In this document: piece after piece, positions 1 to 8,724 of the stretch
Layout of the letters: each line of letters opens with the position of its first letter
Position numbering within the stretch: the first letter of the stretch is position 1
Assembly: GCA_043799545.1 (NCBI GenBank)
Contig: JAZDNO010000005.1
Location: forward strand, 32,001 to 96,000
Length of the DNA: 64,000 bases
DNA from: Methanobacteriota archaeon
GTDB lineage: Archaea > Thermoplasmatota > Thermoplasmata > SG8-5 > DAIRED01
Reading direction: 5' to 3'
The notes under the pieces: generated by a model
Database searches by the model: none
Told to the model about the DNA's origin: nothing
What the model saw: the letters and a program-made list of their open reading frames with translations, nothing else
Program-made: the position numbers and the translations under genes

Positions 1-3000
1 CCACATCCTTGAAGCGTGACCACGTCTGCCCGTTGACCGTCGCTGGGTAATTGGACCTGTCGATTTCGGCGCCGGTGCCCGTGGTCAGGCGGACGACGCC
101 TCCCGCGTCTGGAAACCGGTTGTTCTGTGTCATGGTGGCAACTAGGTATTCCGAACCCGAGCCCCAAGCTCCGATGGCGGTTCCCACAGGGAACGTGTAC
201 CTGAGTTGGTTGCCGGAATAGATGCGCCAGCCGCCTATGTTTATCGCAGAGCTTGTGGGGTTGCAGAGTTCGACCCACTCCGGGTTGGGCCTGGCTGCCA
301 GCTCGTTTATTACTATCCTCGATGCGGGCGACGCGACCGTGACGGAAACTTGCGATACTGTGGGCGGCAGCGAGACGCCCGCAGAGTCCTTGAATGCGCA
401 AGTGACGAGGTTTGTCAGAATGGTTCCGGGCGCGACGCCAGCGCCCACCTGTGCAGACAAGGTGACCTGGTAATTCCCCGGCGCGACATTCAGGAAGGAC
501 CAGAAGACGTTTTGGCCCGCGACGGTCGCGGGTGGTGGGGTGGCCGAGACGTACGACATCCCGACAGGCAACGTGTCATTCAGCCAGACGTTCGAGGCCG
601 TGCCGTCGCCGGTATTGTTGTAATATATCGTGAAATCGACGTAATCGCCTGGCGATGGCGTTGACGATAGGGCGACTTTTTTTACGGTTATCGACGGAAG
701 AGGCGCCTGCACGGTCACAGTCCAGCTGTCTGTCGATGTGCCCAGGAACCTCGAGAGCTGGTCGGTGTACTGAAGCTGGACGTTGTTGACGAGGACGGTT
801 CCGCTCGTGACACCAGCATTAACGGTGGCGCTCACGGTGAACGAGTGCGTTCCCGGCACGACATTGTTGAAATACCAGCGGTAAGTCTGACCCGCGAAAG
901 AGGCGTAGGGTACGCTTGAGGCGGAGTAGGTCGTGCCCGCCGGGAGCGTGTCGTTGACCCAAACGTGGCGCGCGTTGCCGTCGCCGGTATTGTTGTAGTA
1001 GATTGTGTAAACAATGGCCCCACCAGGCGGGGCTGTGACCCTGTCGCCCGCCTTGTCCACAGCAATCATCGGCGCGGTCCTGTCGTTGGGCGCCCTGAAG
1101 GTCGGCGAGTCAGATATGTAGTAGTCACCGACGGTGTCGGTGTCCATCGGCATCCCCCAAGTCGCGTTCTTGAAGCGTGCCCAGCTCTGGCCGGCGAGGA
1201 GCGCTCCGTATGTGAAGGAATCGACAGTGGCCCACGTCCCGGCCACTTGAAGGAGTATTGTCGCGCCGCCGTTGGGCAGCTCGTTCCCGTTTCCGTAGAA
1301 CGTGGCGGCATAGTATTCGGTTCCCGAGCCGAACGCCCCCAGGATTGTGTTGGCGGGGAAAACGAACAGGTTCGAGCTCCCCATCCTCAGGCGCCAGCCG
1401 CCTATGTTTATCGGGGATGAAGTCGGGTTGCAGAGCTCTATCCACTCGCCGTTGTTCGGCAAAACCACAATCTCGTTTATCACTACGTTGTCCCCCGCGG
1501 GAGAGCGCGTCTGAGACACGAAGACTGAAGTCGAGAGCGCCCCGTCGCTCACATCCGAGCTTCCGTCTGAATCGCGCATCTCAACCGTCACCGCGGTCTG
1601 CGGTCCCACGAGCCATTGGGGCAACCGCCCCTCGAACCGCCAGAGGTCGTTGCCCACCGGAACATCCGGGTCAGTCTCCCTCCAGGGAATCCGGCCTTGG
1701 CCCGGGTCGTATGCCGCGAGGGAAGTTCCCAGAACAATCCCGCCCCGCCCCGTCACTACCAGGGCGTGGTCGGCTCCCAGCCCGCCTGGTACTCGCGCAC
1801 CGGTCGAAGCGTTTCCGTCTGAGTCAATCCACAGCAGTAGCGAGTCCTCGCCGAGCCTCTCGCGCTCCCTTTCCGTGACTGGTCCGACATAGACGCCGGA
1901 TGATACGTTCGCGAAAGGAGCGGGGAAATCGACTGGCGTGGTTGCGTTCAGCCACAGGTCGGGGCCGTAAGGATATTCGACGAGCCCGTCCCCGTCCTTA
2001 TCGCCGTCCTCCATGGCATCGTTCACGCCGTCGTTGTCGAAATCGAATGGCATGGGGTCCTGTCCGTTGGGCACGCCATCCATGTCGTTGTCGGAAGCGT
2101 TCCAGTCTGGTGCCGGAGCTGGGCTCCCGCCTTCCCTCCTGATGGAGTACCTCGGGAAAGCCGAACCCCCTAGGGCTGTGCCCGAGACCTGCACGAAGAA
2201 CTCGCCGCTGTCCAGCAAGGCTGACGAGACGAGGTCGACGTTCCGGTTCTCCAGCAGCCCGTTACCCAGGGTAGTCGTCACGTCACCAAGCGAATCGGGG
2301 GACTTGGGCACCCCGTTCCAGTCCGCGAAAGCGCCGTCGATGTGCACATCCGTCCAAAGACCGAGGGAAATCGTCGATGGGGCGAGTTTCGAGATGTGCA
2401 CGTCGCCCGCCTCCGCGCGCACGATGCGGCTCAGGGTCAGGCCAGTTGTGTTCGGCAAAACAGCGCCCTGGCCCGCACTGCCAGCAATGGTAATATTTAC
2501 GACTTCGTCTTCCGCTAGGGCCAATGGCAGAGCGAACGTGATACCTAGGATGGCGTTGCTCTGGGACTGCGTGAATGCGAGGGGCTCGATCGCCCCGCCA
2601 GCGCGAATTGCCGCTATCGAAGAGACGGAAGTGGCGTCGGGGGCGTTGCCAATGCGCGTCAGCTCCAATCCCATGATGGAGGAAGCACCGCCAGAAGAAT
2701 GCACCGTCACACGCTGCACCTCGAGCACTCCAGGTTCGGACAAAGACTCCGATTCCGGGCCGCGCTCGAAGGCTTTTGCCACCGCCAGGCCAGGGGACAC
2801 CGGGGACTCGGCCATGTCCTGATAGCCGGAGCCGTCGCTCGTGCAGACCAGCACCAGCGGCGAGGTGGCATTCGAGGGCAGAAACGCCTCGACCTCGACT
2901 TCAGAGTTCGAGACTGCAACGTTCGCCGCCGCGCCCGAGTCGAACCCGAGCCAGTTGGTCCTGTTCTTCGATCGGTCGAAAGCCCTCAGGACGGCGCCCC

Positions 3001-5956
3001 CGTCCCCGCGCCACCCGGAAACGTCAAGCAGATAGTCGGCACCAATAGAACCGATAGAATAACCCGTTAAAGCGTTCCTGTCCGCGTCGATGAATGCATA
3101 CATGGACGCAGTGGAGTTCAGCTCGGGAGTATGCTGGCCGGCAAGGGCGCTCCCTCTCACCGAAGCATAAACGAAGAGCTTCTGGTTTTCATAACCAAGT
3201 TTAATCTGGTCGATTACAACATCGGCGTTCGCAGATGCGGGCGTGAGCGCATTGCGGTACCCGGCGACGTTCTCCCAGTCACCGAAGTATCCGTCCACGG
3301 AAAGCGTCGTGGCCCTGGGCTTTCCGAGGTCCAGCATGGGGGAGAACATCATGAGAGCCACCGCAAGGGCCATGAGCCCGGCCATCCAGTGCCACTGGTT
3401 CCGCTGCTCATCCCTTCTCCGGTAAGGTGCAGGAGCGGTTCCGTTGATGAATCCCGTGCCGTTTATCAGGCCGATGCCGTTGACGAGCCCGGCGCCGTTC
3501 ACAAGGCCCTGGCCGTTCGTGAGGCCGCCCGAATATCCGAGGCCATTGACCAGCCCGTTGACCTTGCCCCGTCCGTTGACAAGACCGTTGATGCGGCCGT
3601 TGGTCCTGCCACGGCCATTGACCAGCCCGTTAATCCTGCCGTTGGTCTTGCCGCGCCCGTTGACCATGCCATTGACTCGGCCATTGGTTCTGCCTCGTGC
3701 CAAACCGTTAACCATTCCGCCCACGGGCTTTCCCCTCTGACCCTGGGGCGTGCTGGAAACGCGAGATTTCGGTTGCTGCCCCGGCATGACTGCGGCCGTG
3801 GCCGGCTCCGTAAGCTCGCTGATTCGCTCGTACGACAGCCTTATCGCTTCATGGAACGACCTGGTGGCTTCGGCGCTCTGACCCCGCTTCTGCAACAGTT
3901 CCCCCCTCTCTTGCCAGAGTCTGTCGTTTTTCGGGTCGTTTTTAAGGGATTCCTCTATGAACCAAAAGCGCGCGTCGAGATTCTCCAGGTCTCTGGACAT
4001 CTCCTCCTCGTCGACCGCCCCCCCGGCGTCGCGCATCTTGGCAATCAATTCCAGAGCTCTGGCCCGGTAATCTGTTTCGCGCTCCGGAGACAGTTCCGCG
4101 GCCTTGTCGAAGCAATGCATGGCTTCGTCCAGTTGCTCCGACGCCATCATGGATACGCCGCGCTGGAACCAGTCGTCGGACGTCTTCGGCTCTTCGCTAT
4201 TGGGCTCGGGCTTCGCTTCGCCGGGCAGTGTCTCTTTCTCTACTTTTTTCGTTACTGGCTTTGTTGTGGCGGTCACTTCGGCTTCCGGGGCGCCCATGCC
4301 GGACCAGCGCTGTATGAAATCCTTTGAAATGCCTCGCCTCTTGGATGACGTATCTTGCCTCGACGTGTCTGGAACCTTCCCGTCCAGCTTCGCCGTGAGC
4401 TTGCTGATGCGGCAATCCAGGCACAGGCTCTCGCCCTCCTTGACACGTTTGCCGCAGACCTCGCAACCGCGCTCTAGCTCATTCTTTGCCAGCACTTCAA
4501 CCAGTCGGCTACTTTCCCGTGTGCGCTCCCTGGCGGCGGGGGCGGTCTTCCCGCCCATGCCGATGGCATATTCCAGGGCTCCGCAGACGTTGCAGTATTC
4601 GCCCTCCCCCTCGTAGCCGTCCCCGCAAGTCTTACAGGTCTTCCCCGCCGGATGGCAAGCCGGGCATGCTGCACCGGCTGCTGTGATGGGCTTACCGCAG
4701 TCTGGACACAATGGTGGGGACGGTTCAGGGATGTTTATTTCCGGGGCGGGTCGGGCTATCTCTGTCTGGCTGAAATCCGCGCCGCAAGCCTGGCACCGGC
4801 TGGCCTTTTCCGAAAGGAAGGCTCCGCAGTCCGGGCAGAGGTATAACTCGACCGGCTCCTCTTCCTTCTCTGCGGGAGCCTTCTCGACGAGCGGCATCTC
4901 GACGCCGTCGTCGGGCTCGAAGACTGCTCCGCAGCTAGGGCATTTGTCCGCGCCTTCCGCAGCCAGCGAGCCGCAACCTGGGCAAATGAAGAGCGACTTT
5001 TTGTCCTTGTACCAGAACCCGTCCACATCCTTGCCAGCATCAGCCCCGGGTTCGGTTTTCTCGATTAGCGGCAGTTCGACCTGCTCATCATCGACGAATT
5101 CAACCCCGCACTTGGGGCACAGCTTCGAGCCGGCGGCGGCAAGCGAGCCGCAACCCGGGCACAGGAACAAGCTCGCACCAGCCTTGTACCAGTGACCGTC
5201 GACGTCCCCTTTGTCCTTGACCTCTGGACCGCTGGTAGTTTGCTGGGTCTCCATCTCCAAAGGCATCTCCACGGCTTCTTCTTCGACGAAATGGGCGCCG
5301 CAGCGCGGGCATCCCTTCGAGCCAGCAGCTGCCAGAGAGCCGCACGACGGGCATAGGAAAAGTTTCGCCTCATCCTTGTACCAGAATCCGTCTTCCGCAT
5401 CCTCTTTCTTGGTTTCCAAAGGAACCAATGGAATGTCCACCGTTTTTTCGTCCGGTTCGAAAACCGCTCCGCACGACGGACATTTTTGCGCATCCGCAGC
5501 CGCAAGAGATCCGCATGATGGACAAAGGAAGAGCTTTGCCTCGTCCTTGTACCAGAATCCGTCATGCGCTTTTTCTTCAATCTTGTCGGGCTCGGTTTCA
5601 AGCGGAAGCTCGACCTCGTCCCCTTCCTCGAAGTGCACGCCGCACTTGGGGCAGCTCGCCGCCCCAGACGATGCCAGGGAACCGCAGGCCGGGCATATGA
5701 AAAGGCTGGATTTTCCACTCGACCACCAGCTATCTGCTTCTTCTTTGGGCTTCTCTGCGCCGATGGCCTCCTTGGCCGCCTTGATGACGTTGTCCGCAAG
5801 CGCCAGGCCCATGCCGCCCACTTGTGCCAGGTCTTCGCGGTTGGCTGCGGCGATGTCGTCCAGAGTCTTGAACCCGGCGCCCTCCAACGCCTTGGCCCTC
5901 GATTTGCCCACGCCGGGCAGGGTTGTGAGCTTCCTTGTGGATTTGTCTTTCGACAT
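1..5956 (-). CDS. Giant multidomain single-pass membrane protein, 3' end beyond the window (HhH, 9 double zinc ribbons, TPR, Asn-Gly repeats, TM helix, Ca-binding DxDxDG, lamin-tail x2, DUF11 x2)
   Basis: Manual translation from ATG 5956 (MSKDKSTRKLTTLPGVGKSRAKALE...) stays open in one frame to base 1. Motifs include CPxCG..CPxCG repeats, VINE..EWIELCNPT (LTD) and YTIYYNNTGDG..VNDTLP (DUF11). Missing from the ORF track because no stop falls in the window. Confidence 0.9.
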   Translation of the reverse strand, partial: MSKDKSTRKLTTLPGVGKSRAKALEGAGFKTLDDIAAANREDLAQVGGMGLALADNVIKAAKEAIGAEKPKEEADSWWSSGKSSLFICPACGSLASSGAASCPKCGVHFEEGDEVELPLETEPDKIEEKAHDGFWYKDEAKLFLCPSCGSLAAADAQKCPSCGAVFEPDEKTVDIPLVPLETKKEDAEDGFWYKDEAKLFLCPSCGSLAAAGSKGCPRCGAHFVEEEAVEMPLEMETQQTTSGPEVKDKGDVDGHWYKAGASLFLCPGCGSLAAAGSKLCPKCGVEFVDDEQVELPLIEKTEPGADAGKDVDGFWYKDKKSLFICPGCGSLAAEGADKCPSCGAVFEPDDGVEMPLVEKAPAEKEEEPVELYLCPDCGAFLSEKASRCQACGADFSQTEIARPAPEINIPEPSPPLCPDCGKPITAAGAACPACHPAGKTCKTCGDGYEGEGEYCNVCGALEYAIGMGGKTAPAARERTRESSRLVEVLAKNELERGCEVCGKRVKEGESLCLDCRISKLTAKLDGKVPDTSRQDTSSKRRGISKDFIQRWSGMGAPEAEVTATTKPVTKKVEKETLPGEAKPEPNSEEPKTSDDWFQRGVSMMASEQLDEAMHCFDKAAELSPERETDYRARALELIAKMRDAGGAVDEEEMSRDLENLDARFWFIEESLKNDPKNDRLWQERGELLQKRGQSAEATRSFHEAIRLSYERISELTEPATAAVMPGQQPKSRVSSTPQGQRGKPVGGMVNGLARGRTNGRVNGMVNGRGKTNGRINGLVNGRGRTNGRINGLVNGRGKVNGLVNGLGYSGGLTNGQGLVNGAGLVNGIGLINGTGFINGTAPAPYRRRDEQRNQWHWMAGLMALAVALMMFSPMLDLGKPRATTLSVDGYFGDWENVAGYRNALTPASANADVVIDQIKLGYENQKLFVYASVRGSALAGQHTPELNSTASMYAFIDADRNALTGYSIGSIGADYLLDVSGWRGDGGAVLRAFDRSKNRTNWLGFDSGAAANVAVSNSEVEVEAFLPSNATSPLVLVCTSDGSGYQDMAESPVSPGLAVAKAFERGPESESLSEPGVLEVQRVTVHSSGGASSIMGLELTRIGNAPDATSVSSIAAIRAGGAIEPLAFTQSQSNAILGITFALPLALAEDEVVNITIAGSAGQGAVLPNTTGLTLSRIVRAEAGDVHISKLAPSTISLGLWTDVHIDGAFADWNGVPKSPDSLGDVTTTLGNGLLENRNVDLVSSALLDSGEFFVQVSGTALGGSAFPRYSIRREGGSPAPAPDWNASDNDMDGVPNGQDPMPFDFDNDGVNDAMEDGDKDGDGLVEYPYGPDLWLNATTPVDFPAPFANVSSGVYVGPVTERERERLGEDSLLLWIDSDGNASTGARVPGGLGADHALVVTGRGGIVLGTSLAAYDPGQGRIPWRETDPDVPVGNDLWRFEGRLPQWLVGPQTAVTVEMRDSDGSSDVSDGALSTSVFVSQTRSPAGDNVVINEIVVLPNNGEWIELCNPTSSPINIGGWRLRMGSSNLFVFPANTILGAFGSGTEYYAATFYGNGNELPNGGATILLQVAGTWATVDSFTYGALLAGQSWARFKNATWGMPMDTDTVGDYYISDSPTFRAPNDRTAPMIAVDKAGDRVTAPPGGAIVYTIYYNNTGDGNARHVWVNDTLPAGTTYSASSVPYASFAGQTYRWYFNNVVPGTHSFTVSATVNAGVTSGTVLVNNVQLQYTDQLSRFLGTSTDSWTVTVQAPLPSITVKKVALSSTPSPGDYVDFTIYYNNTGDGTASNVWLNDTLPVGMSYVSATPPPATVAGQNVFWSFLNVAPGNYQVTLSAQVGAGVAPGTILTNLVTCAFKDSAGVSLPPTVSQVSVTVASPASRIVINELAARPNPEWVELCNPTSSAINIGGWRIYSGNQLRYTFPVGTAIGAWGSGSEYLVATMTQNNRFPDAGGVVRLTTGTGAEIDRSNYPATVNGQTWSRFKDV

Positions 5957-5977
5957 CACCCATTCTATATTGGTCTC

Positions 5978-5985
5978 TATATAAA
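5978..5985 (-). promoter_or_regulatory. Archaeal TATA box of the giant ORF
   Basis: TTTATATA on the minus strand about 22 nt upstream of ATG 5956, in an AT-rich intergenic gap. Confidence 0.6.
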
Positions 5986-6050
5986 CCAATTATAATGGGA
6001 GAAAAGAGATATGACGACATAAAATGGTCATAATGATTACAATATTTTGT

Positions 6051-6680
6051 TCATTGCCAAAAAAGTGTAACGTACGGGTTCAAGCCGAACCGCAACGTCG
6101 TCTGCCTGCCCTTCCCCCCGATTATCACGTAGACCTCCGCGGGATCGCTCTTAATCACCTTTGGCTGGAGACCCAGGACGGAAAGCTTCGAAAGGGTCCC
6201 GTCCAGCAGGCCCTTTCTGCGGTCAAGGTAGGCCTCTCCGGAATTGGACAGCAGCTCGGAAGGGTAGTACCTCACGCTCCGCCCGTCGCGCGAAGTTAGG
6301 GCCAGCCCAAGCTTTCCGAGGTCCCGCAGAACCCTCGAGACCGATTGCCTCGAAGAGCCGAGCTTCAGGGCAAGTCCGTCTTGGGCGAGCCCGGGATTGG
6401 TAATCACCTCTCTCAGCGCGGCCCTCCTATCCTCATTGGCGAGGAAGGCGAAAATCTCGAATTCCTCATCCCTCAGCATCCCGACCGGATAATACGCGGC
6501 GTGGCCCTTGAAATTGCGCGCCGCCAGCAGTTCGGCCTTGGCGAGCTTCCTCAGGTGCCATTTAATCGATGCTGGGGACAGCGACATGGCGCTTGCGATT
6601 TGAGACCTGATGGAGCATGGCCTGTGCGAAAGGAACGAAAGGACTTCCGCGTCGTTCTCCGACATGGCAAGCCCGCGCAT
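6051..6680 (-). CDS. Tandem winged-helix (ArsR/MarR-like) transcriptional regulator; start uncertain
   Basis: Two wHTH-like segments: SQIASAMSLSPASIKWHLRKL and QDGLALKLGSSRQSVSRVLRDL..VRYYP. Confidence 0.75.
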   Translation of the reverse strand: MRGLAMSENDAEVLSFLSHRPCSIRSQIASAMSLSPASIKWHLRKLAKAELLAARNFKGHAAYYPVGMLRDEEFEIFAFLANEDRRAALREVITNPGLAQDGLALKLGSSRQSVSRVLRDLGKLGLALTSRDGRSVRYYPSELLSNSGEAYLDRRKGLLDGTLSKLSVLGLQPKVIKSDPAEVYVIIGGKGRQTTLRFGLNPYVTLFWQ

Positions 6681-6753: not shown

Positions 6754-7629
6754 TCACCCCGCCTTGTACTCAGCCGCTATGTCTTCCAACAAATCCTCCG
6801 GGTCAACGCTCTTAAGGTCCGAATCCCGAACCTCCGCCAGAGCCTTCTCAATCCTGTCCCGGACCTCCTTGGGAAGCAACGGCGAAATCCTTCCGAGCCC
6901 TTCCATGAGCTGGGTGGAAACCCGGTGCTCGTCCCTGACGGGCTCGCCTCCCCGGGCGACCACGATGCCGAGCCCCTTAATTATGCTGTACGGATGCGAC
7001 CGCTCGCTGTGCCTGCTGTTCCTGCACTTGACTATCTTGAACCTGCGCTCGGCGCCTTCGTCCAGCGCCCTGTACCTCAGGTGGATGACGCAATCGGCCA
7101 GATACATCGGGATGACCGTCTCGTTTCCGGTCAGGTCGCTCGCCGACCCGTGCTCCTCCAAGGTCGCCAGTACCGTTCCCACCTTTCGGGTCTCTTTGAG
7201 CATGAAACCGATGAGGTCCCGCTGCTCGTATCGGTCTGCGTTCGCCCAAAGCACGGGCGTGAGCGGGTCGACGACGATTCGGGCGTTCGCCCCCTTCCAA
7301 TCCTCGACGAAGGAGGGCAGCTCCTTCTTGATGAACGTCGCAAAGTCTCGCCCAGAGGCGTCTATGAAAACGAGCTGCTCGCGCTCGATGTATTCGAGGA
7401 TTTCGCCCCACCCCATCTCGATGGCCTCTTTGATTATCTGCTCCTTGTTCTCGTCGAGGCTCACGAAGATGCCTTCCTGTCCCTCCTCCAGTCCCCTGCG
7501 GATGAATTGCGTTGCGAGGGTTGTCTTGCCCGCGCCGGAGGCCCCGATGACGACTGTGGTGGAACTCTCGTTGATGCCGCCGTCGATGAGCGCGTTCAGG
7601 CCGTAGACTCCGCTTCTTATTTTGCGCAT
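6754..7629 (-). CDS. KaiC/RAD55-like single-domain ATPase
   Basis: SGVYGLNALIDGG, Walker A GASGAGKT, Walker B IVVDP, R-finger region VKCRNS. Confidence 0.9.
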   Translation of the reverse strand: MRKIRSGVYGLNALIDGGINESSTTVVIGASGAGKTTLATQFIRRGLEEGQEGIFVSLDENKEQIIKEAIEMGWGEILEYIEREQLVFIDASGRDFATFIKKELPSFVEDWKGANARIVVDPLTPVLWANADRYEQRDLIGFMLKETRKVGTVLATLEEHGSASDLTGNETVIPMYLADCVIHLRYRALDEGAERRFKIVKCRNSRHSERSHPYSIIKGLGIVVARGGEPVRDEHRVSTQLMEGLGRISPLLPKEVRDRIEKALAEVRDSDLKSVDPEDLLEDIAAEYKAG

Positions 7630-7686: not shown

Positions 7687-8595
7687 TTAGTGGCCCCTCT
7701 CCTGCAAACGCTGCCCAGGCAGCAACTGCTCGACTGCGATGCCTTTCATGGCCTCCCCGAGCCCCACGGAGACTTTGACCAGGACCTTCGGGTCGTCGTA
7801 GTGCGTGACAGCCTCGACGATAGCTTTCGCCCGTTTCTTCGGGTCGTTGGACTTGAAGATGCCCGAACCGACAAAGACTCCGTCGCTCCCGAGCTGCATC
7901 ATCAACGCGGCATCGGCGGGGGTCGCAATGCCGCCGGCCGCGAAGTTCACAACTGGCAGCCTCTGAAGTTTAGCGATTTCCTTCACAAGGTCAGCAGGAG
8001 CTTCAATCTTCCGAGCGAAGAGCTCAAGCTCCTTCCCATCCTTGCCTTTCAGCTCCCTGATTGCGCCCATTATCGCGTGCTGGTGCCTGACGGCCTCGAC
8101 CACGTCGCCTGTTCCAGCCTCGCCCTTCGTGCGAATCATGGCGGCGCCTTCGGCTATCCTACGGAGCGCCTCGCCTAGGTCTCGCGCCCCGCAAACGAAC
8201 GGGACTGTGAACTTGGACTTGTCAACATGATGGAACGGATCCGCAATAGTCAAGACTTCCGACTCGTCTATCATGTCAACGCCCATCGATTCCAGAATCT
8301 GGGCCTCGGCGAAGTGGCCGATGCGGACTTTCGCCATCACGGGAATGGTCACGGTGTCCATTATCTCCTGGATTTTCCTCGGGTCCGCCATTCTGGCGAC
8401 TCCGCCAGCTGCGCGAATGTCCGCCGGAACGCGCTCCAGGGCCATGACCGCCACCGCTCCAGCCTTCTCAGCAATCTCCGCCTGCTTTGCGTCGGTGACG
8501 TCCATAATTACGCCCCCCTTCTGCATCTTGGCGAAGCCACGCTTGAGCAGCTCTGTCCCGTGGCGCATCTTCCTTAGGTCCAACTTGACTGGCAT
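7687..8595 (-). CDS. pdxS: Pyridoxal 5'-phosphate synthase lyase subunit
   Basis: [51 protein letters not shown]; start placed at ATG 8595 after GGGTGA. Confidence 0.97.
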
Positions 8596-8724
8596 TGCAT
8601 CACCCGCCTGACCCATCGGCGCCAGGTTATTTAACCTTTCCGCGAGGCCTGGAGATGGCATCCATGGGCATTATGGGTGGTGTACGAGCTAAGGGCCGGC
8701 GACCATGTGGCAATCGCTCACATT

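Follow-up and report, generated by a model that had tools for sequence, protein, structure and literature searches.

The left end of the DNA analysed here (the window: 64,000 nt, C2:32001-96000, C2 being contig JAZDNO010000005.1 of assembly GCA_043799545.1, a 2.06-Mb Thermoplasmata metagenome-assembled genome (MAG) of 31 contigs) carries three genes that encode, in minus-strand order, a KaiC-like ATPase, a double winged-helix (wHTH) protein and a giant membrane protein, hereafter the giant. The reading frame of the giant is missing from the default list of open reading frames (ORFs) because it runs off the window; with open ends allowed, it covers window 2..5989 (1,996 codons, open at the window edge), its first ATG lying at 5956 (protein start MSKDKS...). 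In the whole contig, the frame reaches a stop at C2:29491, and the gene (C2:29491-37956) encodes 2,821 aa with neither an internal stop nor an N base. The original prediction had postulated an unlisted frame of >1,985 aa, proposed to extend the contig up to its stop, and regarded the listed ORFs as antisense shadows. All of this agrees with the whole-contig reading: in this gene of 60% GC, the overlying plus-strand ORFs (e.g. 3131..4327) are shadow frames. A TATA-box-like element ahead of the ATG suggests that the gene may have its own promoter and a near-leaderless transcript.

Within this frame, a cytoplasmic and an extracellular part are connected by a transmembrane (TM) helix with the appearance of a signal anchor. 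The helix is directly preceded by RRRDEQR, and in 17 orthologs 9-10 Arg/Lys residues stand right before it, the equivalent stretch reading RRLRHRRRERxxWRYR. Residue composition changes across the helix, with 37 Cys on the cytoplasmic side versus 8 in the ectodomain, and 2 versus 27 sequons, respectively. Both the basic stretch and this asymmetry fit an N-in, C-out topology, with a cytoplasmic part of 855 aa and an ectodomain of ~1,915 aa. The N-in orientation, earlier proposed from the basic residues only, is thereby strengthened, and the sequon-rich region outside, first estimated at >1,100 aa, proves even longer. The predicted single TM helix stands in its position and its basic flank, but it is not the sole hydrophobic segment, since a second one lies at the C-terminus, outside the window. 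The continuous frame, the domains and the topology indicators support the view, already taken in the original prediction, that one gene joins a cytoplasmic helix-hairpin-helix (HhH)/zinc-ribbon/TPR part to a large extracellular part via one membrane-spanning helix.

That two separate genes were joined at the TM junction by misassembly or a sequencing error is extremely improbable. The only point in favour of such an artefact is that the genome is a MAG in 31 contigs, whereas the fused layout recurs in over 50 independent assemblies, the frame holds no N and no stop, and each of 54 related loci (54/54) has a single ORF running through both the cytoplasmic and the extracellular part, so that homologs split into two genes, which had been considered as a counter-case, were not seen among them. 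Four loci that first seemed to lack a continuous ORF did so through an alignment-start artefact.

The cytoplasmic part consists, from the N-terminus, of an (HhH)2 domain, nine Cys4 zinc ribbons, a helix with the consensus KDFLxRW, a TPR-like domain and an Asn-Gly tract of ~100 aa. In the AlphaFold model of residues 1-880 these form beads on a string (predicted template-modelling score (pTM) 0.24), in which the HhH, ribbon and TPR units are confident and helices are seen at 543-552 (short) and 843-874 (TM). The N-terminal HhH, recognized from the outset and now matched above the Pfam cut-off, has two G-hydrophobic-G hairpins, both kept in orthologs, with P14 and G17 invariant and a predicted local distance difference test score (pLDDT) of ~90; its NCBIfam matches, to RadA (32.8 bits, far under cut-off) and, scoring higher, to L32e (36.1 bits), are both under cut-off. 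This domain class is a known non-specific binder of double-stranded DNA, and DNA tethering via the HhH is possible. The adjoining array had been described as nine double zinc ribbons; the array is indeed there, but its nine CxxC...CxxC units with 36 Cys correspond to nine single Cys4 ribbons. A DG(F/H)WYK motif precedes four of the nine, and the copy number in orthologs ranges from 2 to 15. The TPR and the Asn-Gly tract, both anticipated earlier, are borne out by the TPR_2 match and by 17 Asn-Gly dipeptides within residues 749-838. Encoded partly by a 42-nt tandem repeat (x3.3, window 3565-3702) and predicted to be disordered (pLDDT 27-39), the tract is kept in 50/50 orthologs and in all 74 homologs retrieved, always adjoining the membrane helix. 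Along it, Arg-rich NGR units with a 14-aa period pass into hydrophobic hexapeptides NGxGL[VI] near the membrane.

Outside the cell, a CBM9-like, an Ig-like and a DOMON-like domain are followed by lamin-tail domains (LTDs) and seven CLIPPER (DUF11) domains, and by a PEF-CTERM-like tail. Pfam searches of residues 700-900 and 860-1500 gave no match, and a model of the 616 residues after the TM helix, built with 25 homologs, contains three sandwiches (pLDDT 79, pTM 0.72). The first, D1, lacks a Pfam match, resembles 1i82 (Z 11.1, 148 aligned, root-mean-square deviation 3.8) and is putatively carbohydrate-binding, while an Asp-rich loop of D3 (1288-1325), with invariant Asp columns, is probably Ca-binding. 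When the whole 616-aa model was compared with the PDB by Foldseek, only low-TM generic Ig, integrin and adhesin matches were returned. Farther out, Pfam detects three copies of the LTD (PF00932, 133.3 bits, cut-off 34.3) and seven stretches of CLIPPER/DUF11 (PF01345, 246.3 bits over the whole ectodomain, cut-off 24.6; TIGR01451, 267.9 bits). The Lys/Asp/Asn triad (K, NDTLP, N) that makes a stabilising isopeptide bond in CLIPPER domains (bioRxiv 10.1101/2025.04.25.650565) is present in 7/7 repeats, K1760 and N1849 of the giant aligning with K715 and N806 of 9IFR, and the bond itself is predicted from these residues. The last 30 residues, VVVPEF-GDFAVPTLTILASLMVLI-RIRRKIQF, comprise PEF, a hydrophobic helix and a basic cluster, and score 12.4 bits (E 0.15) with the PEF-CTERM model TIGR03024, under its cut-off of 23. 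Besides an ArtA gene, the genome has a second archaeosortase-family gene (C7:20693-21385), best matched by ArtC (59.8 bits, under the cut-off of 100) and carrying the exosortase/archaeosortase signature (50.5 versus 23).

LTDs are found in some extracellular nucleases, and the combination of an external LTD array with an internal HhH and an ATPase of the RecA (RadA/KaiC) superfamily might suggest a device for DNA capture or transfer. We consider this very unlikely: the protein, with its one TM helix and a tail anchor, lacks a channel-forming part, Pfam/NCBIfam searches of the giant returned no nuclease or ComEC-like domain, and paralogs swap the LTDs for FG-GAP or other ectodomains while the module is kept.

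The ATPase matches the CI domain of KaiC (E 7.7e-34) and is 65-94% identical among orthologs, whereas the giant and the wHTH protein are ~30% identical. Scanning species-representative genomes with the KaiC ortholog gave 118 relatives, 80 of which were kept, all from uncultured Thermoplasmata-type MAGs, and 59 loci had enough downstream DNA to be counted. The wHTH gene comes next after the KaiC-like gene in 57 of these 59, and the N-terminal part of a giant lies ~780-1,200 nt downstream of the KaiC-like gene on the same strand in 56. The order KaiC, wHTH, giant also holds in all five contigs looked up for giant homologs; in one, where the giant is only 35% identical, the whole six-gene layout is kept, including the genes that follow the giant outside the window, namely an HTH protein, a second KaiC-like protein and a 1,640-aa paralog of the giant. 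A third module, on contig C5, comprises a KaiC paralog (54% identical), a middle ORF without Pfam matches that hhalign linked to the wHTH protein (E 2e-12), and a giant of 3,086 aa that rearranges the same building blocks and has an FG-GAP ectodomain. The source genome thus holds three KaiC-like/regulator/giant modules. Because PdxS, DUF7121 and SHMT genes flank it in relatives, the triad sits in a stable syntenic block: the PdxS (SOR_SNZ) gene (window 7687-8661 (-)) is directly upstream of the KaiC-like gene both here and in all five homolog contigs, and DUF7121 and SHMT lie downstream of the giant here and in four of the five, the fifth contig ending earlier.

In the ortholog alignment, the cytoplasmic part contains the invariant short motif GVSKDFLDRWKK, of which K545, F547, R550 and W551 are invariant in 17 orthologs. 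KDFLxRW occurs in 39 of 50 orthologous giants; within the source genome, the motif pattern is confined to four ORFs, two of them giants (C2 and C5), with EDFVAKW at residue 18 of the C5 protein. Complex prediction was run with three chains, the KaiC-like protein, the wHTH protein and, as partner, giant residues 525-738. The ipSAE score was 0.58, 0.65 and 0.65 in three runs versus 0.01 for the best control; it expresses model confidence, to which likeness to solved KaiC complexes could add, and the ipSAE mark is reached by 58/80 solved complexes and 2/110 mismatched pairs. The runs share at least 27% of their contacts, with a partner pLDDT of at least 55, and swapping out the ATPase abolishes the docking score. 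In the confident interface, residues 541-554 of the giant meet residues 52-54, 84-116 and 150 of the ATPase, and the contacting residues of the giant are exactly the invariant ones of the motif. The wHTH regulator, part of the same job, is absent from the confident interface, which gives no verdict on its binding. By profile alignment to cyanobacterial KaiC, residues 84-116 of the ATPase correspond to the CI strand, the B-loop and the following helix, and the KaiC B-loop (116-123) is the KaiB-binding site (PMC12084410). The KDFLxRW helix is predicted to dock the KaiC-like ATPase at the equivalent of this site.

An ATPase so positioned could also serve assembly or quality control, driving or checking the insertion, archaeosortase processing, clustering or turnover of the giant. 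There is an analogy in KaiC-like ArlH, which works with the archaellum motor, and the docking prediction would suit such a machine, as would the much stronger conservation of the ATPase (65-70% versus 30-35% identity for the giant) and the demands that the export of ~1,900 aa behind an 855-aa cytoplasmic domain may pose. Against this explanation, which appears unlikely to us, speaks the fact that a transcription factor is the invariant third member of the module; furthermore, short-N-terminus paralogs (C12, C29) share the Asn-Gly/TM/PEF design, and no KaiC-like gene was detected adjoining them.

A search with residues 1-900 retrieved 74 proteins, ~50 of them (1,550-2,550 aa) with the full HHH_5, ribbon, TPR, LTD and CLIPPER layout and all of these from Thermoplasmata or Thermoplasmatota MAGs. 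Some bear generic names in their source ('DUF11 domain-containing', 'lamin tail domain-containing'), most none, and nearly all of the 74 end in an IPE[F/M/Y] tail. A survey of Thermoplasmata MAGs, as had been advised, thus finds the same architecture to be common and its neighbours conserved. The core of the giant (residues 730-1200, that is the Asn-Gly tract, the TM helix and the CBM9-like domain) was found in 101 of the 201 class genomes sampled and in 24/30 families, with several copies as the rule. In the source genome, six proteins share a variable cytoplasmic part, the Asn-Gly tract, the TM helix and a large ectodomain, and five of the six end in PE[F/Y]. The Asn-Gly tether, signal anchor, CBM9-like base and PEF-type tail constitute a class-wide design of Thermoplasmata surface proteins. 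In distant members, a KaiC domain with a degenerate Walker A motif stands in for the HhH/ribbon part before the Asn-Gly tract. An inactivated KaiC domain is likewise found in the 1,640-aa downstream paralog (E 5e-11, via the inactivated KaiC domain of homolog P0066), the N-terminus of which gave no significant BLASTP match to the neighbouring KaiC-like protein. These fusions in relatives and in the paralog support, in the manner of a Rosetta stone, the coupling of the giant to a KaiC-like partner.

Such a widespread family with several paralogs per genome would also suit a structural envelope protein, i.e. a glycocalyx- or S-layer-like scaffold or adhesin whose HhH and ribbons tether the nucleoid or another structure, while the ATPase and the wHTH protein merely regulate its expression. 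The conserved (HhH)2 hairpins, from a class that binds double-stranded DNA non-specifically, and the multivalent ribbons (2-15 copies) are compatible with this, and CLIPPER stalks are typical of fibrillar adhesins (bioRxiv 10.1101/2025.04.25.650565). It would, however, leave unexplained both the invariant KDFLxRW motif with its predicted fit to the ATPase and the repeated fusion of inactivated KaiC domains to the Asn-Gly/TM core, and we regard it as a serious but doubtful explanation.

With a probability of roughly 0.5, we instead read the giant as a surface stalk with two membrane anchors, coupled to a KaiC-like/wHTH module that links the cell surface to an ATPase switch and to transcription. 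The CBM9-like/Ig-like/DOMON-like module near the membrane would carry the long LTD and CLIPPER stalk, the end of which would be a PEF-CTERM-like signal probably processed by the ArtC-like archaeosortase of the genome. Inside, the flexible Asn-Gly tract would hold the string of (HhH)2, nine ribbons, KDFLxRW helix and TPR, the helix would recruit the dedicated KaiC-like ATPase encoded two genes upstream, and the wHTH regulator encoded between them would complete the conserved three-protein module. Surface events such as attachment, glycan binding or strain on the stalk could thereby reach the ATPase switch and, from there, transcription, the direction and purpose of the signalling being what we infer. 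We place such outside-in signalling ahead of assembly control and of a structural tether with HhH-DNA contact. In its most specific form, the triad would be an undescribed transmembrane signalling system in which the adhesin ectodomain, fixed to the membrane by both its ends, passes on attachment or strain via the one TM helix and the disordered Asn-Gly tether and acts, through the scaffold at the KaiB-site equivalent, on the ATPase and ultimately on wHTH activity. This we advance only tentatively, yet if true, the archaeal KaiC-like signalling hubs that have been proposed would gain their first defined receptor input. The one-component receptor suggested in the original prediction, on the other hand, is not supported: Pfam/NCBIfam searches of the giant detected no HTH or other output domain, the wHTH protein and the KaiC-like ATPase are encoded by separate genes directly upstream in nearly all relatives, and the only predicted cytoplasmic contact is that with the ATPase.

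Several points weigh against the coupling of stalk and switch. A strict KDFLxRW match is missing from 11 of the 50 orthologs, and the docking comes from one structure-prediction job with author-made alignments, three chains and a partner pLDDT of 55-58. Moreover, with 80% of the whole KaiC-like protein invariant, the conservation of its interface does not discriminate. The housekeeping neighbours (PdxS, DUF7121 and SHMT) are kept as well, and the conservation of gene order may therefore partly be inherited synteny; the giant, with its own TATA-like element, may be transcribed separately from the KaiC-like and wHTH genes. NCBIfam scores stay under the cut-off for the C-terminal tail and for the ArtC-like protein alike. 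Finally, signal sensing by the ectodomain is a matter of interpretation, and the whole case is computational.

Table 1. Features of the giant gene and of its two upstream neighbours. Coordinates refer to the window unless marked C2.
Feature	Residues	Coordinates	Strand	Evidence
Giant gene, part inside the window	1-1985 of 2,821	2..5956	(-)	open-ended ORF listing
Giant gene, other 836 codons		C2:29491-32000, before the window	(-)	whole-contig reading
TTTATATA, archaeal TATA-box-like element, ~25 nt upstream of ATG		5978..5985	(-)	read from sequence
(HhH)2 domain	19-74	5735..5902	(-)	Pfam HHH_5 (PF14520), 51.2 bits vs cut-off 27
Nine Cys4 zinc ribbons	87-516	4409..5698	(-)	DZR and zinc-ribbon matches, Cys motif count
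RGISKDFIQRWSGM, consensus KDFLxRW, predicted docking helix	541-554	4295..4336	(-)	ortholog alignment and complex prediction
TPR-like helical domain	593-720	3797..4180	(-)	TPR_2, 36.4 bits; pLDDT 80-94
Asn-Gly tract, 14-aa super-repeat	~745-845	3422..3724	(-)	dipeptide count, repeat search, model
Signal-anchor TM helix, N-terminus probably inside	857-875	3332..3388	(-)	hydrophobicity, ortholog alignment, model
D1, CBM9-like beta-sandwich, begins with DGxFxDW	883-1057	2786..3310	(-)	model vs 1i82
D2, Ig-like (CnaA/CLIPPER/cohesin-like)	1055-1201	2354..2794	(-)	7wrk Z 10.0; 9ifr Z 9.6
D3, DOMON/CBM-like sandwich	1201-1480	1517..2356	(-)	2ivf_C Z 10.2; 7uwu Z 10.2
First LTD	1496-1595	1172..1471	(-)	Pfam LTD
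CLIPPER (DUF11) domains 1 and 2	~1630-1870	347..1069	(-)	DUF11 match, alignment to 9IFR
Second LTD, cut by the window edge (more LTD/CLIPPER units and the tail lie outside the window)		2..304	(-)	Pfam
Double winged-helix regulator, 209 aa, directly upstream of the giant		6051..6680	(-)	Pfam HTH_24, MarR, others
KaiC-like ATPase, 291 aa, Walker A GASGAGKT intact		6754..7629	(-)	PF06745, 132.8 bits vs 26.6

Each part of the giant has known counterparts. Like fibrillar adhesins with CLIPPER stalks (bioRxiv 10.1101/2025.04.25.650565; PDB 9IFR), it has tandem CLIPPER domains with the triad, a long repetitive sequon-rich ectodomain and a terminal sorting signal. These adhesins, however, have a cleaved signal peptide and no cytoplasmic part, whereas the giant combines a cytoplasmic scaffold of 855 aa with a signal anchor that looks uncleaved, and its LTDs alternate with CLIPPER pairs. 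With the substrates of PEF-CTERM/archaeosortase C (Haft et al. 2012, as cited in PMC9723798) it shares the C-terminal P-E-F, hydrophobic helix and basic cluster, and an ArtC-like gene is present in the genome. Unlike in these substrates, the tail falls under the cut-off of the hidden Markov model, relatives often carry IPEM or IPEL, and the N-terminal TM anchor is kept too, which would leave the mature protein anchored at its two ends. Integrin-type and anti-sigma-type single-pass receptors offer an analogy only, in that they combine a large ectodomain, one TM helix and an effector-recruiting cytoplasmic tail; there is no homology, the effector here would be a KaiC-like ATPase, and the C-terminus of the giant appears separately anchored.

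KaiC-like ATPases are greatly expanded in archaea and, to our knowledge, a partner has been defined for very few of them. A role as archaeal signalling hubs has been put forward for these ATPases (Makarova, Galperin and Koonin 2017, as cited in PMC5847659 and PMC6393860), a proposal that, as presented in PMC5847659, the module fits and to which it would supply a concrete membrane partner. As in such hubs, a single-domain KaiC-family ATPase with an intact Walker A motif stands beside a regulator, and relatives contain fusions with inactivated KaiC domains. As for the cyanobacterial KaiC-KaiB contact, the site predicted for the partner falls on the CI B-loop region, where KaiB binds; in contrast to that contact, the partner is a short KDFLxRW helix in a giant membrane protein, and no clock components are present. 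Literature on Thermoplasmatota and the lamin tail domain, and on archaeosortase and Thermoplasmata, did not mention the giant family, and the earlier statement that no protein of this architecture has been characterized still holds as far as could be found: the individual domains and the general ideas are known, while we found no description of their combination, of the near-invariant triad, of the KDFLxRW motif or of the class-wide design. As one locus supplies a short, conserved and mutable motif for the predicted docking, a highly conserved ATPase and a regulator, recombinant proteins would allow a direct test of the hub idea without any need for the organisms, which are uncultured. The class-wide design should improve the annotation of many large 'hypothetical' or 'DUF11' proteins and prompts one to ask how an archaeal membrane can hold a protein by both its ends.

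Further observations concern the modules and the paralogs of the giant. The second module (C2:23210-29390 (-)), directly downstream, encodes an HTH_20 protein of 184 aa, a KaiC-like protein of 233 aa (Walker A GPAGSAKS) and the 1,640-aa paralog, which contains the inactivated KaiC domain, 5 ribbons, an Asn-Gly tract, a TM helix, an LTD, 2 CLIPPER domains and an IPEY tail; GCA_016214785.1 retains the six-gene layout, whereas the closest relative has lost it. The wHTH protein, ~28% identical among orthologs, yet has an invariant C-terminal G-[LI]-N-P-Y-x-T motif, and a conserved extension at the C-terminus of the KaiC-like protein ends in E-Y; either terminus could act as a peptide ligand, e.g. 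of the TPR domain. A PE[FY], TM and basic tail is present in 7 proteins of the source genome. One 6,093-codon ORF (C7:36441 onward (+)) ending in IPEY, TM and basic residues lies ~15 kb from the ArtC-like gene and was not flagged for an Asn-Gly tract. At C9:18693-21302, an 869-aa Asn-Gly/TM protein lacks the PEF tail and is overlapped, in another frame, by a 475-aa ORF from ~C9:21144 that ends in TPEF, TM and basic residues, the two being probably pieces of a single gene that a frameshift or an assembly error has interrupted. The KaiC family model has 36 matches in the source genome, all above the Pfam cut-off, a very large expansion; the match at C18:59577-60233 contains an in-frame TAG and is either a pseudogene or possibly read through.

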